Part shown: one piece after another, positions 19,311 through 46,130 of the stretch | Position numbering within the stretch: the first letter of the stretch is position 1 | Layout of the letters: every line of letters starts with the position of its first letter | DNA from: a virus | Lineage: Duplodnaviria; Caudoviricetes | Length of the DNA: 64,000 nt | IMG/VR virus record: IMGVR_UViG_2974637922_000001 | Span: 132,843 to 196,842 of that record | Strand: one strand, 5' to 3' | Translations under genes and position numbers: made by a program | The notes under the pieces: model-generated | The model's database searches: none | What the model was told of the DNA's origin: nothing | Seen by the model: only the letters and a program-made list of their open reading frames with translations

Positions 19311-19622
19311 ATGACTAAAGAAGTTAGCGATTTGAAACTCACACGACTTGAGTGTGTGAAGTGTGGCGCCACTTGGATCAATGGTAATCATGTATGGAAG
19401 ACTGGTAATACTGGAAGTGAAACCGATCTAGCTGGGTTAGTTTGCAATAAACTAGGTGATGACGATTGCATCAACCCCCTAAGGGGTGCTGAGACAGGTG
19501 ACACTTGGGAACAACGCCTTGGTGACCTGGATACTGGATTCAATGCAAGGAGAGAGCGTCTAGAAGACCAGAGAGCAAGGTTCAAAGAACAATATGGAGA
19601 AGACCCTCACTTTGACGATTGA
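19311..19622 (+). CDS. Conserved cyanophage Cys-rich hypothetical protein
   Basis: CVKCGATWINGNHVW, DLAGLVCN, CINP. Confidence 0.75.
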   Translation: MTKEVSDLKLTRLECVKCGATWINGNHVWKTGNTGSETDLAGLVCNKLGDDDCINPLRGAETGDTWEQRLGDLDTGFNARRERLEDQRARFKEQYGEDPHFDD

Positions 19623-19668
19623 GGAAGTGGCACACCCCCTAGGCAAACCTATGGGGATGCGTTATAAT
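19613..19668 (+). promoter_or_regulatory. Early promoter with an upstream imperfect palindrome
   Basis: TGACGATT..AAGTGGCACA, then TAGGCA-17-TATAAT. Confidence 0.6.
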
Positions 19669-33997: not shown

Positions 33998-34240
33998 ATG
34001 GCTTATACTTACGCATTTACTGATGCTGATAACAACAGCATCAAACGCACTGATGAAGACGGTAACGTTGCATTCGTTCCAGTCGCAGAAGGCAATCGTG
34101 ACTACGCAGAATATCTATCCTCTGGTATCACTGCCGATGCATACGTAGCACCACCGGAACCAGAACCCCTTACTCCAGAAGAGAAACTAGCCAACTCTGG
34201 ACTGACAGTTGATGAGCTAAAGAGTTTGTTAGATCTATAG
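33998..34240 (+). CDS. Tail-fibre-associated small protein (chaperone-like)
   Basis: VP...NRDYAEYL, LTPEEKLANSGLTVDELKSLL; directly follows the fibre gene. Confidence 0.65.
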   Translation: MAYTYAFTDADNNSIKRTDEDGNVAFVPVAEGNRDYAEYLSSGITADAYVAPPEPEPLTPEEKLANSGLTVDELKSLLDL

Positions 34241-34241
34241 G

Positions 34242-34312
34242 TGTGACAGCCAGCAAACTGGCACAGGGGGTTGGCACCCTGGGGAATCTGTGTTATAATA
34301 AACACATAAATA
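34242..34312 (+). promoter_or_regulatory. psbA promoter region: palindrome + early promoter + late promoter
   Basis: TGTGACAG..ACTGGCACA; TTGGCA-17-TATAAT; CATAAATA. Confidence 0.7.
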
Positions 34313-34345
34313 AGATATGTAAAGTTCTTATTACAACACTTCCAT

Positions 34346-34450
34346 CTAACCGAGACCTACGGGGAAGTAAAATACGTCTCTAATACCTACACCGGAGGGT
34401 GGTGTAGGAATAATACTATCGTCAGCTCCCCCTGGCACTACTTACCCTTT
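34346..34450 (+). ncRNA. PhotoRC-II-like structured RNA in the psbA 5' UTR
   Basis: GAGAC..GTCTC stem and CCTACACC-GGAG-GGTGGTGTAGG hairpin upstream of a cyanophage psbA; family assignment from memory. Confidence 0.6.
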
Positions 34451-34457
34451 TTACACA

Positions 34458-35537
34458 ATGGCTTCAACACTTACACGCCGTCAAGGCGCATCTATCTGGG
34501 ATCAGTTTTGTTCCTGGGTCACATCAACCAACAATCGTCTTTACGTCGGTTGGTTCGGTGTTCTAATGATTCCTACATTGTTAGCCGCAACTGTATGTTT
34601 CATTATCGCTTTCGTGGGTGCTCCCCCAGTGGACATCGACGGAATCCGTGAACCAGTAGCTGGTTCACTCATGTATGGAAACAACATCATCTCTGGTGCA
34701 GTTGTTCCTAGTTCAAACGCAATCGGTCTACACTTCTACCCAATCTGGGAAGCAGCCACACTCGACGAATGGCTCTACAACGGTGGTCCTTTCCAACTAG
34801 TTGTCTTCCACTTCCTTATTGGTATCTACGCCTATATGGGACGTGAGTGGGAACTCTCTTATCGTTTAGGTATGAGACCTTGGATCTGTGTAGCATACTC
34901 TGCACCAGTTGCAGCAGCTTCAGCAGTATTCCTAGTCTATCCTTTCGGTCAAGGTTCATTCTCAGACGCGATGCCCTTGGGTATCTCTGGAACATTCAAC
35001 TACATGTTGGTCTTCCAAGCAGAACATAACATCTTGATGCACCCCTTCCACATGTTGGGAGTCGCAGGTGTCTTCGGTGGTTCATTGTTCTCAGCGATGC
35101 ATGGTTCACTTGTTACCTCTTCACTTGTCCGTGAGACAACTGAAACTGAGTCACAGAACTATGGTTACAAGTTCGGCCAAGAAGAAGAGACCTATAACAT
35201 CGTGGCAGCCCATGGCTACTTCGGTCGTTTGATCTTCCAATACGCTTCATTCAACAACTCACGCTCACTCCACTTCTTCTTAGCCGCATGGCCAGTTGTG
35301 GGTATCTGGTTCACCGCACTTGGTGTTTCCACAATGGCATTCAACCTCAATGGTTTCAACTTCAACCAGTCTGTTATCGACGGACAAGGTAGAGTATTGA
35401 ACACCTGGGCGGATGTTCTTAACAGAGCTGGTCTTGGGATGGAAGTAATGCATGAGAGAAATGCACACAACTTCCCACTAGATTTGGCAGCAGCTGAGTC
35501 CACACCAGTGGCTCTAATTGCACCATCTGTTGGTTGA
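34458..35537 (+). CDS. psbA: Photosystem II D1 protein (uninterrupted)
   Basis: [39 protein letters not shown]. Confidence 0.99.
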
Positions 35538-35607: not shown

Positions 35608-35838
35608 ATGTCTCACGATCTAATCGAATTGCTCACTTACTATGTGATCGGTGGTGCCCTTATCATAGGACCACCCGCTATCTTTCTCATCATTGCTATG
35701 ATGGCAGCACTCCAAAATACGAAAGGTCGCATGGTTGGATACAAAGATCACAAAACTTATGGTGATTCATCCATCTACGATCCGGCACCAAAATTGCCAG
35801 TAGATCAAACAAAATTCTTCTTGGAACTTAACAACTGA
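35608..35838 (+). CDS. Small membrane protein between psbA and psbD
   Basis: 76 aa with a TM segment. Confidence 0.7.
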   Translation: MSHDLIELLTYYVIGGALIIGPPAIFLIIAMMAALQNTKGRMVGYKDHKTYGDSSIYDPAPKLPVDQTKFFLELNN

Positions 35839-35849
35839 GGTAAACAAAA

Positions 35850-35897
35850 ATGACGACAAGTACACTTACAACACCACAAAGGGGGTGTATTCGTTAG
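35850..35897 (+). pseudogene. psbD: Stranded 5' remnant of the original psbD
   Basis: GAGG RBS, then MTTSTLTTPQRG (cyanophage D2-type N-terminus), breaking inside the Trp codon (TG|T) and stopping. Confidence 0.7.
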
Positions 35898-35967
35898 TCT
35901 GGAAGCAACTGACACAAATACCATAGGGGTATTGGCAAAAACCAGATATCTGTGTTATACTGGGTAG

Positions 35968-36150
35968 GGATAGGTAGAGTATTCAGGGGTGAAAAGACTA
36001 CCTATACCCCCCAATAATACACAGCAATAATACACAGAGAATACTTATAATAAAACCCCTACGGGGTTTGCCTACGGGCAACTGAAAGAGATATATGTAT
36101 AGGGGCAACTGATATAACTGCTATGCCCGCTACGCCAACCTGAAAAACCA
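35968..36150 (+). ncRNA. Putative structured non-coding RNA
   Basis: Downstream of TTGGCA-18-TATACT; no ORF; ATAGGTAG/CTACCTAT stem and two cUACGg hairpins. Confidence 0.4.
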
Positions 36151-36157
36151 CAAAGGT

Positions 36158-36234
36158 AGTATAACACCAGAAGTAGTTATTGGCAACTATCTAGAAACTA
36201 TCTAGTTGCCGCAGGGGTTTTTATGCGTTATAAT
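36158..36234. promoter_or_regulatory. Back-to-back divergent sigma-70-type promoters
   Basis: Minus: TTGCCA(36186-36181)-17-TATACT; plus: TTGCCG(36206)-17-TATAAT; the -35 boxes form the arms of a GGCAACTA..TAGTTGCC inverted repeat. Confidence 0.6.
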
Positions 36235-36257
36235 AATAATACCCTGAATACAAAACT

Positions 36258-36422
36258 ATGAGTATGGTGAAGCAACACCTGTGGCAAGAGCAACACGCCC
36301 CTACCGCAGAAGATATAGAAGAGTATGAGTTATACTGCTACTACCTAGATATGGTAGAGCGGTATAATACTACTGCCCCTATGAAGTTTTTAGAAGAAGT
36401 GTTTAGTGAAGAGGTAGAGTGA
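36258..36422 (+). CDS. Small acidic protein coupled to the HNH gene (not in ORF track)
   Basis: MSMVKQHLWQEQHAPTAEDIEEYELY..., 54 aa; GTGA overlap with the HNH start. Confidence 0.6.
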   Translation: MSMVKQHLWQEQHAPTAEDIEEYELYCYYLDMVERYNTTAPMKFLEEVFSEEVE

Positions 36423-37051
36423 AGCAACTAATACAAAACCCAAACAACTATACAATAACCCCAGAGGGGGTTGTATTATCTAACAAATACAAACGCCCCC
36501 TATCACTACAATATGATAGAGGGGGCAACCCCTTCTACCAGATAAAACGCCTAGGGGGTGGTAGTAGGCAACAACTATACCAAAACAAACTACTACCCCA
36601 ACACTACCCCTTCTACTGGATAAACCAGTTAGAAGAGGGTGAGGAGTGTAGGAATATAACTTATATCTACCAACACCCTATGCCCCCCTACAAATACTTT
36701 ATAACCAACAGAGGTAGGGTTTGGAGCAACCTATCTAATAGGTTTTTAGAAACCCAACACAACTATGGTAGGGGTGGATACTATGATAGAATAACCATAG
36801 ATACACACTCTGTGAATACACACTGGTTGGTAGGTAGATACTTTTTAGAGAACTGGTATGCTGGTTGCTTTGTTTGCCATAGGTGTGAAACTCTACCCTA
36901 CCCAAACAGAAACTACCCTACTAACCTGTGGGTAGGCAACAACAGCAGCAACCAGTTAGATAGTGAGAGCAAGCAGAGAACACTACACAGAAGAAAGAGA
37001 GTGAGTGAGTGTATGAGAGGCAACCAAAACTGGCGGGGCAAACACAAATAA
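36419..37051 (+). CDS. NUMOD4/HNH homing endonuclease (I-HmuI-like)
   Basis: Two NUMOD4-like starts (NYTITPEGVVLS; YFITNRGRVWS), HWLVGRYFL, VCH..N..NLWVG..SN. Confidence 0.8.
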   Translation: MKQLIQNPNNYTITPEGVVLSNKYKRPLSLQYDRGGNPFYQIKRLGGGSRQQLYQNKLLPQHYPFYWINQLEEGEECRNITYIYQHPMPPYKYFITNRGRVWSNLSNRFLETQHNYGRGGYYDRITIDTHSVNTHWLVGRYFLENWYAGCFVCHRCETLPYPNRNYPTNLWVGNNSSNQLDSESKQRTLHRRKRVSECMRGNQNWRGKHK

Positions 37052-37126
37052 CACACAAACTCTGTATAACTGATCTACTACGCTTTCTAACCTAGCACTT
37101 TGTTGCTCTGGACTAACAGGGAGTTA

Positions 37127-37150
37127 TGTGTTATAATATAAACATAAATA
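37127..37150 (+). promoter_or_regulatory. Dual early/late promoter for psbD
   Basis: TGTGTTATAATA..CATAAATA, same architecture as the psbA promoter. Confidence 0.65.
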
Positions 37151-37170
37151 CATATAACTTCACAAAAACT

Positions 37171-38229
37171 ATGACTGCTTCACTTGCACCCCCAAAAAGC
37201 AACGGGGGTTGGTATGATATTTTAGAAGACTGGTTGCAGAAAGATAGGTTTGTCTTTATTGGCTGGTCTGGATTACTACTTCTTCCCACTGCTTATCTTG
37301 CCATTGGCGGCTGGCTTACTGGCACAACTTTTGTCACAAGTTGGTACACCCATGGTCTTGCTTCTTCCTATCTTGAGGGTGCTAACTTTCTCACGGCGGC
37401 TGTCTCGACTCCTGCTGATGCTATGGGTCATTCTCTTCTTCTACTTTGGGGTCCTGAATCTCAGGGCGACTTCCAGCGGTGGCTCCAACTTGGAGGGCTT
37501 TGGTCCTTTGTTGCTCTCCACGGTGCCTTCGCTTTAATTGGATTCATGCTTCGTCAGTTTGAACTGTCACGACTCATTGGTATCCGTCCCTACAACGCTA
37601 TTGCATTCAGTGGTCCTATCGCTGTATTTGTCAGTGTGTTTCTTCTATACCCACTAGGTCAATCTTCCTGGTTCTTTGCCCCCTCCTTTGGTGTGGCAGC
37701 AATCTTTAGATTCCTATTGTTTCTTCAGGGTTTCCACAACTGGACACTGAACCCCTTCCATATGATGGGAGTTGCTGGTATACTAGGTGGAGCACTACTA
37801 TCTGCAATCCATGGCGTTACTGTTGAAAATACCCTATATGAAGATGGAGAACAGAATAACACCTTCACTGCGTTCGATTCCACCCAGGAGGAAGAGACCT
37901 ATTCGATGGTTACTGCGAACCGCTTCTGGTCGCAAATCTTCGGGGTTGCGTTTAGTAATAAGCGTTGGCTTCACTTCTTTATGTTGTTTGTTCCTGTCAT
38001 GGGTCTTTGGGTCTCAAGTATTGGGATCATTGGGCTTGCTCTTAATCTTCGTGCTTATGATTTTGTGAGCCAAGAGATTAGAGCAGCAGAAGATCCTGAG
38101 TTTGAAACTTTCTACACAAAGAACATCCTTCTTAACGAAGGACTAAGAGCATGGATGGCACCTGTGGATCAACCACATGAGTCATTTGTATTCCCAGAAG
38201 AAGTTCTACCTAGAGGTAACGCATTGTGA
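37171..38229 (+). CDS. psbD: Photosystem II D2 protein (352 aa) with a divergent N-terminus
   Basis: [35 protein letters not shown]. Confidence 0.98.
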
Positions 38230-45677: not shown

Positions 45678-45689
45678 TAGTGTTATAAT

Positions 45690-45721
45690 AACCCCATAGG
45701 TCCATTCCCATGGGGTTTTTT
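45690..45721 (+). terminator. Rho-independent terminator
   Basis: AACCCCAT..ATGGGGTT followed by a T tract. Confidence 0.65.
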
Positions 45722-45755
45722 GTTATGAATACATAAAACTAAATGGACTTACTCC

Positions 45756-46130
45756 ATGAATACATATGGTTCTCCCGAAGGTTATCTCTTTAACCTTCAT
45801 ACCTGCTCAGCATCAGAAGCGAAGCGAATGTGGAAAGAATCTATAAAGAATGATTGGAAACATAAATGTGCTTATTGTGGATCAGAACATGAAATTACTT
45901 TAGATCATATAGTACCCAAAGCAAAAGGGGGCACTAGTCACACAACCAATATCGTAGCCTGCTGTCGTTCTTGTAACGCCAGTAAGGCATATGAGGATTG
46001 GATTATCTGGTATATTCAACAGCCATTCTTCACTGAAGAGAGGAGGGAGGCTATTGAAAAGTGGATGGAGAAGGGTCTCCTCAACAATAACTTAGTTGCA
46101 TATCCACCCAGAAGAAATGTCGTTTATTGA
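45756..46130 (+). CDS. HNH endonuclease (McrA-like Zn finger)
   Basis: CAYCG..TLDHIVPKAKGG..NIVACCRSCNASK. Confidence 0.9.
   Translation: MNTYGSPEGYLFNLHTCSASEAKRMWKESIKNDWKHKCAYCGSEHEITLDHIVPKAKGGTSHTTNIVACCRSCNASKAYEDWIIWYIQQPFFTEERREAIEKWMEKGLLNNNLVAYPPRRNVVY

Follow-up and report, generated by a model that had tools for sequence, protein, structure and literature searches.

Among the selfish elements of T4-like phages, homing endonucleases are the principal ones and, to our knowledge, the restraints on them described so far are cis-acting RNA hairpins, promoter choice and autorepression. Elsewhere, the small RNAs (sRNAs) that adjoin type I toxin-antitoxin genes, as in IstR-1/tisB and OhsC/shoB, are partly complementary regulators. 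In T-even phages, translational masks with a nested promoter have been described for I-TevI, I-TevII, I-TevIII and segB of T4 and for mobE of the Aeromonas phage Aeh1 (PMC2988022). T4-like phages also carry PeSLs, repeated units of a sigma-70 promoter and a stem-loop that lie at the borders of insertions and deletions (indels) (PMC2839356, PMC4122927). In cyanophage S-PM2, CfrI (Millard et al. 2010) is described as a ~225-nucleotide (nt) antisense RNA that links psbA and the homing endonuclease F-CphI (PMC2984593, PMC12197685). Here we analyze a 64,000-nt stretch of viral DNA (IMG/VR record IMGVR_UViG_2974637922_000001, positions 132,843 to 196,842; hereafter the window), which genome comparison assigns to the ACG-2014f type of T4-like Synechococcus phages. 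The region around positions 35,898-36,422 of the window would be an RNA-based control module at the front of a free-standing homing-endonuclease cassette, in which a short non-coding RNA could bind the leader of the nuclease operon. A dedicated antisense-like RNA gene that co-evolves with its target would add a layer to homing-endonuclease control, and it would be a rare phage-encoded base-pairing sRNA with an identifiable target.

The cassette comprises, in this order, a promoter (P1), a 5' hairpin RNA, a linker, a terminator, a second promoter (P2), a leader of ~17 nt, an open reading frame (ORF) of 54 amino acids (aa), an HNH-like nuclease gene and a replacement promoter and start for psbD. 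P1 (35932-35961, + strand) consists of TTGGCA, an 18-nt spacer and an extended -10 element, TGTGTTATACT. A promoter scan recovered it with 10/12 matches plus the TG extension, and it falls into one class with the psbA promoter (34271-34299). In four copies of P1 the -35, TG and -10 elements are invariant and the spacer varies both in length (17 or 18) and in sequence, which is what a working promoter would show; its activity is predicted. Downstream, an ORF scan found no plus-strand ORF of at least 25 aa between 35838 and 36258, and comparison of the window with its sister cassettes found no conserved ORF in the P1 RNA. This RNA would open with a hairpin (35967-36009, + strand; -18.2 kcal/mol, z -2.8) that contains the stem ATAGGTAG/CTACCTAT. 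Its lower stem has 11 base pairs (bp) and a single bulge and is followed by an internal loop; the upper stem, UUCA/UGAA, is capped by a GGGG loop. The promoter hexamers TTGGCA and TATACT, the ORF-free stretch, the stem, a 13-nt repeat and further hairpins had been listed in an earlier note made from the sequence alone, and all were found at the coordinates given there. P2 (36206-36234, + strand) consists of TTGCCG, a 17-nt spacer and TATAAT, and its -35 overlaps the 3' arm of the terminator. Its predicted start lies about 17 nt ahead of the AUG in the window and 27 nt in a sister cassette (L024, see below), and both leaders are unstructured.

The complementarity on which our reading turns lies between the hairpin and this leader. 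The segment GTATTCAGGG (35979-35988) is the exact reverse complement of CCCTGAATAC (36242-36251), which is located 6 nt ahead of the ATG at 36258. The first segment, arm A (GUAUUCAGGG, + strand), extends from the internal loop through the 5' half of the upper stem into the apical loop, of which it includes 3 nt. The second, arm B (CCCUGAAUAC, + strand), corresponds to roughly +2 to +11 of the transcript predicted from P2 and, counted from the start codon, to -16 to -7. Predicted promoter P2 sits between the two arms, and the same layout is found in L024. To gauge chance matches we compared the energy of the hairpin/leader duplex with that obtained for 2000 dinucleotide shuffles of the leader. 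The window pair reached -19.4 kcal/mol (shuffles: mean -11.9, standard deviation (sd) 2.3) and 8 of the 2000 shuffles did as well. The exact loop/leader match proposed by the earlier note is confirmed.

Related modules allowed us to follow this match through sequence change. They are referred to by locus, namely L002 (a locus of KJ019066), L024 (the gp45/gp44 locus of KJ019152) and L031 (a metagenome contig). In L024 the arm (1546-1561) and the leader of the same cassette (1657-1672) can form 16 bp, one of them G-U, and both sequences are unlike those of the window pair; outside a shared CCC the window and L024 leaders are 36% alike. This duplex reaches -24.6 kcal/mol and is equaled by 3/2000 shuffles. 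The loop of the L002 hairpin, which stands without a cassette, is an exact 11-bp complement (2548-2558) of the L031 leader (75-85), with a duplex energy of -25.0 kcal/mol that 2/2000 shuffles match, and the L031 leader differs from the window leader at the same position where the L002 and window hairpins differ. The geometry is the same in all pairs, the first nucleotides of the P2 transcript (ACCC...) meeting the apical G-loop and pairing continuing down the 5' strand of the upper stem. When opening energies were added to the duplex energy to correct for accessibility, the interaction amounted to -12.4 kcal/mol for the window pair, -10.3 for the L024 pair and -13.0 for L002/L031, against -3.7 to -9.3 for non-cognate combinations.

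The hairpins themselves change in a coordinated manner. Those at L002:2536-2578 and L024:1535-1588 are homologous to the window hairpin, have other stem sequences (for instance AUAGGUAG/CUACCUAU in the window vs AUUGGUAG/CUACCAAU in L002) and retain the GGGG tip. In all of them a lower stem with a bulge leads through an internal loop to an upper stem rich in A-U pairs and to the GGGG tip, and the two homologues fold at -19.8 and -17.6 kcal/mol (z -5.9 and -2.2); a MAFFT alignment of the three hairpins gave no structural register. In the sister cassettes the promoter hexamers are kept, and both stems and arms co-vary. Sequence comparison establishes the cassette, its promoter and terminator anatomy, the hairpin and a hairpin-leader complementarity that co-varies between cassettes, as RNA-RNA regulatory pairing predicts. 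With a promoter and a terminator of its own, both predicted, and complementarity kept through sequence change, the P1 RNA would have two features of a trans-acting sRNA. The psbD-site and gp45-site cassettes would then represent naturally orthogonal RNA/leader pairs.

Our preferred reading, to which we give a probability of about 0.55, is that the P1 RNA is an antisense-like repressor of translation of the nuclease operon, acting in trans and on read-through transcripts. P1, of the sigma-70 type, would drive a non-coding RNA that opens with the stable GGGG-capped hairpin and, in the ancestral cassette, would stop ~105 nt on at an intrinsic terminator. P2, which overlaps this terminator, would start the small-ORF/nuclease mRNA ~17-28 nt ahead of the start codon. 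The first 10-16 nt of the P2 mRNA would complement the loop and the upper-stem 5' strand of the P1 hairpin, so that pairing could nucleate between GGGG of the loop and CCCC and spread down the upper stem, and the duplex formed on the mRNA 5' end would cover the site where ribosomes land on the small ORF. Given the overlap of the two ORFs, a block of the small ORF would hold down the nuclease too. We infer that the RNA is made, that it ends as predicted and that pairing represses the mRNA rather than protecting it. The same arm could mask the leader in cis on transcripts that pass the terminator, and this mode may weigh more in the window than in its sisters because a 143-nt insertion has damaged the window terminator. 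Pairing of this kind also leads to the expectation that L031-type arms read GUUUUCAGGGG or otherwise match their own leader.

In several respects such an RNA would resemble IstR-1/tisB and OhsC/shoB: the RNA gene adjoins its target, 10-16 nt of the 5' leader are involved and a block of ribosome loading is expected on a harmful gene. Unlike in those systems, the RNA here lies on the same strand, in tandem and upstream rather than divergent, and the first ORF encodes an acidic, helical 54-aa protein rather than a hydrophobic toxin, in a mobile cassette of a lytic phage. As for timing, P1 and P2 are both sigma-70-like and the T4-type late box TATAAATA, of which there are 8 in the 64-kb window, has 0 occurrences in the cassette; because of this the system would seem to damp expression steadily instead of switching between early and late. 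The earlier note had suggested a cis-encoded RNA that times or represses endonuclease translation. The regulatory part of that idea agrees with the conserved promoter, the hairpin and the co-varying pairing, and the part on timing by promoter class is not supported.

Several observations weigh against this reading. Four further copies of the 10-mer are present in the 197-kb genome, and genome-wide the leader is outranked as a duplex partner by other sites of lower raw energy, so that the single window match is in itself weak evidence. Arm A of the window lies partly within the upper stem, and the predicted fold of the window P1 read-through RNA keeps it in its own hairpin. RNAcofold showed no cognate preference, although this program cannot model pairing of a loop with its target while the stem stays intact. 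The window duplex covers neither a Shine-Dalgarno sequence nor the AUG, and the argument for occlusion rests on the usual footprint of the 30S subunit. Only two complete cassettes have independent arm sequences, and the third pair joins two genomes, the L002 hairpin and the leader of L031, a contig that ends just after the hairpin. The start sites of P1 and P2 and the RNA 3' ends are predictions, and the terminator of the window itself is degraded. Locus searches guided by the nuclease protein, by the small ORF or by the alignment of the latter returned nothing, and the family gained no further members. In phage S-H34, a distant HNH homologue is preceded by a terminator and a late promoter only, with no such module. 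Finally, a second HNH gene of the window has a 9-bp loop-leader match that is not significant, as 697/2000 shuffles were as good.

The nearest precedent leads to a different explanation, in which the arm is only a mask in cis: it would act on long transcripts from P1 or on read-through from upstream (psbA), transcripts from P2 would escape and the sRNA would have no function. The masks of T4 I-TevI, I-TevII, I-TevIII and segB and of Aeh1 mobE (PMC2988022) are a precedent for this, and our locus is like them in being a homing gene of a T4-like phage whose upstream arm complements the translation-initiation region, with P2 nested between the arms. L024 even has a start-codon hairpin of exactly that kind in its leader, an 11-bp local hairpin that, according to the predicted fold, buries the AUG only in transcripts starting upstream of P2, that is, in read-through RNA. 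The weakness of the window terminator would also favor such transcripts. The differences from the T4 type are nonetheless considerable. Here the arms are 100-260 nt apart with an intrinsic terminator between them, and the upstream arm has a strong predicted promoter of its own and is apical in a separate stable hairpin. The nested P2 is of the sigma-70 type instead of a late TATAAATA box, so that no late promoter is available for a temporal switch and the late class does not apply, and orphan arm units exist alone, as P1-hairpin-terminator units without a downstream leader. In L024 and L031 strong canonical terminators lie between the arms, and because of them most P1 RNA should end before the leader. 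Furthermore, the predicted read-through folds keep the arm in its own hairpin, unpaired with the leader. In view of these differences we regard a mask that works in cis alone as unlikely, though it deserves to be kept in mind.

The pairing might also have the opposite sign, with a 5' duplex that shields the P2 mRNA from RNase E, an enzyme that rises during cyanophage infection, and so raises nuclease expression. The target is indeed the extreme 5' end of an A/U-rich leader, and in cyanophage-infected Prochlorococcus RNA duplexes are reported to guard transcripts from RNase E (PMC3113571). Against protection, every control known for homing endonucleases of phages is negative (PMC2988022). Moreover, the duplex would lie within ~6-10 nt of the start codon, and pairing there usually blocks binding of the 30S subunit. 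An activating role seems improbable to us.

The distribution of P1 and its hairpin bears on a further alternative. A copy of this segment (35931-36008) with 85% identity is present at another locus in KJ019152 and in six other ACG-2014f genomes. This orphan locus (L002:2503-2625) lies 5' of a GDP-mannose dehydratase cluster; a resident, canonical terminator follows the hairpin and there are no nuclease genes. The orphan P1-hairpin-terminator unit has a fold z of -6.2, its host genomes have no matching cassette, and the equivalent site in the window genome has no P1-hairpin copy. Directly 5' of the orphan, L002:2410-2503 gives a sub-threshold match to the wcaG RNA (30.7 bits vs a gathering score of 42). 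A third copy, with 75% identity, was found in KJ019152 between gp45 and gp44, where the window genome instead has 12 nt. It heads the second cassette (L024:1433-2473; KJ019152 116899-117939), which runs from P1 through a GGGTAGG start region, the hairpin and a single AUAAUACACAG unit to a canonical terminator; P2, its leader, a small-ORF homologue and a nuclease gene follow. With the canonical terminators of L024 and L031, a discrete P1 RNA of ~107 nt (z -4.0) is predicted. The nuclease of L024 is a different one, EndoVII/HNH-like (phrog_1035, E 1e-31), so that one RNA front end would appear to serve two unrelated nucleases, HNH-like and EndoVII-like. The earlier note's suggestion that the RNA is a partner of the HNH protein is not supported on this point, as the same RNA module precedes the unrelated EndoVII-like enzyme. 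L031 is a third variant, located at the psbD site.

Such scattered copies could point to a recombination module without RNA function, in which P1 with its hairpin and the stem-loop with P2 would be PeSL-like portable homology and the complementarity a by-product. Copies of the P1-hairpin segment adjoin indels at three loci. In KJ019152 the spacer of the cassette P1 equals that of the orphan copy, so that gene conversion is suggested. Between cassettes with 75% identity elsewhere, the P2 block hardly differs: a 42-nt segment (terminator 3' arm, P2 and ACCC) has 97.6% identity to L024 and 93% to L031, as compared with only 74-77% for the small ORF, and is the best-conserved portion of the module. 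The terminator and P2 block followed by a start codon has in fact the layout of a PeSL, and is 93-98% conserved between cassettes. At P1, in contrast, the stem-loop follows the promoter and would be transcribed, whereas in PeSLs it lies upstream of the promoter (PMC4122927), and complementarity to a leader is not reported for PeSLs. Recombination also leaves unexplained the compensatory changes in the stems, and the joint change of arm and leader with complementarity kept in two cassettes. We consider it doubtful that recombination is the only role of these elements, and recombinational and regulatory roles can coexist.

Because the L002 loop exactly matches the L031 leader, the orphan units may be looked at in yet another way. 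A trans-acting sRNA would travel with homing cassettes, and its orphans would provide immunity by silencing an incoming nuclease during co-infection. If true, a phage genome would be defended by RNA against another phage's selfish element, with cross-talk to the psbA leader as a side possibility. The idea is attractive and, in our opinion, rather improbable.

The psbA leader deserves attention in its own right, since the main target of the hairpin could be the 5' leader of psbA, or that of a co-infecting phage, instead of the nuclease operon. The best non-self duplex in the 64-kb window is formed by 35966-36013 with 34396-34449, just 5' of the psbA start. In it CAGGGG at the apex is opposite CCCCUG and the 5' arm is opposite CUACUUACCCU, and the duplex reaches -44.2 kcal/mol as compared with a mean of -20.2 (sd 4.8), ~5 sd below. 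The sister hairpins rank 40 and 96 of 6394 windows. For such a duplex to form, however, both structured partners must open fully. The runner-up sites are close (-39 to -42 kcal/mol), and the support from paralogues is weak and not independent. The match could be due to chance, to shared ancestry of the two hairpins or to a second target, and that psbA is the main target seems very improbable. Within the psbA leader region, a PhotoRC-II motif was recognized, and only there, at 34326-34421 (69.4 bits, E 5e-11), between the psbA promoter and psbA. The locus does share with CfrI a non-coding RNA by psbA, here a predicted one, together with a free-standing homing endonuclease in a T4-like cyanophage. 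CfrI lies on the opposite strand and overlaps both the nuclease gene and psbA, whereas the P1 RNA is on the same strand, does not overlap its target and would act through a 10-16-nt seed; no sequence relation between them was found.

The remainder of the RNA is less conserved than its 5' hairpin. The hairpin is followed by a linker (36012-36037, + strand) in which a 13-nt unit, CAATAATACACAG, is present twice. The linker is single-stranded and one unit (AUAAUACACAG) is kept in the sister cassettes; a search for a complementary target of this motif found none evident. Next comes a lineage-specific insertion of 143 nt (36040-36182) that contains UAC/UACG hairpins and a GGGGCA hairpin. It is absent from L024 and L031, as is the second copy of the linker unit just 5' of it, and no homologue was found besides KJ019152. 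The insertion and the duplicated unit separate the conserved linker from the terminator. Consequently, the structured RNA of ~190 nt envisaged in the earlier note is shared with the sister cassettes only in its 5' hairpin, in a single linker unit and in the block of terminator and P2; most of it is the non-conserved insertion. Similarly, of the two UACG tetraloop hairpins listed in that note, the second, GCC-UACG-GGC at 36070-36079, is retained along with the GGGGCA..TGCCC hairpin, and the first folds best as a 7-bp AAACCCC/GGGGTTT stem with a UAC triloop.

At the terminator (36182-36222, + strand) an 8-bp stem, GGCAACUA/UAGUUGCC, is followed by a 7-nt spacer and then U5, and its energy is -12.9 kcal/mol vs -17.5 in L024 and -20.7 in L031. 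The latter two are canonical, with 10-12-bp stems and the U-rich tail directly after, and in the window the insertion has replaced the 5' arm of the ancestral terminator. Of note, CCTGTGGCAA at 36277-36286, within the small ORF, corresponds to that lost 5' arm. On read-through RNA it could pair with the remaining 3' arm at 36205-36214, enclosing the leader and the start codon; the match is seen only in the psbD-site cassette of the window. The insertion also contains a candidate leftward promoter (36158-36186, - strand; TTGCCA, a 17-nt spacer and TATACT with TG), and the hairpin at 36053-36069 is a better terminator on the - strand, where it has a U-rich tail. The resulting candidate unit, 36186-36046, may yield an RNA of ~105 nt antisense to P1 read-through transcripts. 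Unlike an RNA of the CfrI type it overlaps the non-coding insertion only; the - strand RNA is not unusually structured (z 0.0), and the unit is confined to this cassette lineage and without comparative support.

The site of the cassette was identified by comparison with KJ019146. In the window, psbA ends at 35537 and is followed by a conserved 76-aa ORF at 35608-35838. In KJ019146, which is free of the cassette, an intact psbD begins 12 nt past this ORF and the empty site reads ...AGTACACTT|GCACCCCC.... In the window psbD codons 1-6 are retained from 35851, and the sequences diverge after ...ACACTT. As psbD breaks there and resumes only at 37187, we take 35869-37186 (1318 nt, + strand, after codon 6 of psbD) to be an insertion. 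The same psbD-site cassette was found only in KJ019152, with 98.3% identity, and AT skew is strongly positive over the cassette alone, unlike in its flanks. Absent from KJ019146, present in KJ019152 and distinct in AT skew, the cassette has every appearance of a polymorphic, foreign element. The orphaned 5' end of psbD (35851-35898, + strand) now consists of 15 codons and a stop, and lies within the annotated psbD of relatives. Codons 7-13 of this stump resemble the psbD start of other phage types (S-CAM4, ACG-2014e/j). At the other end, the cassette supplies a replacement promoter and start (37109-37186, + strand; TGGACT, a 17-nt spacer and TATAAT with TG). The new psbD start is at 37172, and the recoded N terminus has MTASL in place of MTTSTL. 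The L031 variant (880-1000) likewise has its own psbD promoter and recoded start, which suggests that flanking recombination has carried the cassette from one psbD lineage to another. Placed within the psbA-psbD pair and replacing the start and promoter of psbD, the cassette may through its regulation affect a key auxiliary metabolic gene of marine cyanophages.

The operon encodes two proteins. The first, the acidic 54-aa protein (36258-36422, + strand; phrog_10005), has three predicted helices, and comparison of six variants showed 28 invariant positions. A fold search with this protein gave no match. A type I toxin was considered for it and ruled out, since the protein is acidic and helical, not hydrophobic, and has no match in the fold search. 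The second is a 210-aa HNH-like homing endonuclease (36419-37051, + strand; phrog_12376) with weak matches to the HNH families phrog_959 (E 1.9e-6) and phrog_59. No Pfam family reached threshold with it; its L031 homologue gives a weak NUMOD4 match. The two genes overlap at GTGA, through which the nuclease is probably translationally coupled to the 54-aa ORF. In a large protein database we found only 1-3 relatives, on short contigs.

Other searches concerned the RNA module as a whole. Scans of viral contigs with exact patterns (P1 and start region, loop and 3' stem, P2 block) gave nothing or chance matches. With relaxed Rfam thresholds, neither 35900-36300 nor the L024 module matched a family, nothing scoring above 16.6 bits (PhotoRC-II and wcaG included). 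A tRNA/tmRNA scan found none, and our literature search found no paper describing such an RNA. A layout of promoter, hairpin and promoter is also present upstream of the second, resident HNH gene of the window (PF01844, 45756-46130), where 45680-45760 contains TGTTATAAT, a terminator-like hairpin and TGTTATGAAT. Lastly, a palindrome of the type GTGGC(A/G)CAC is found a few bases 5' of the -35 in several promoters of the form TTGGCA...TGnGTTATAAT. It is absent at the window's own P1 and occurs at 19600-19640 and 34240-34270 of the window and at L002:2485-2500, by the orphan P1.

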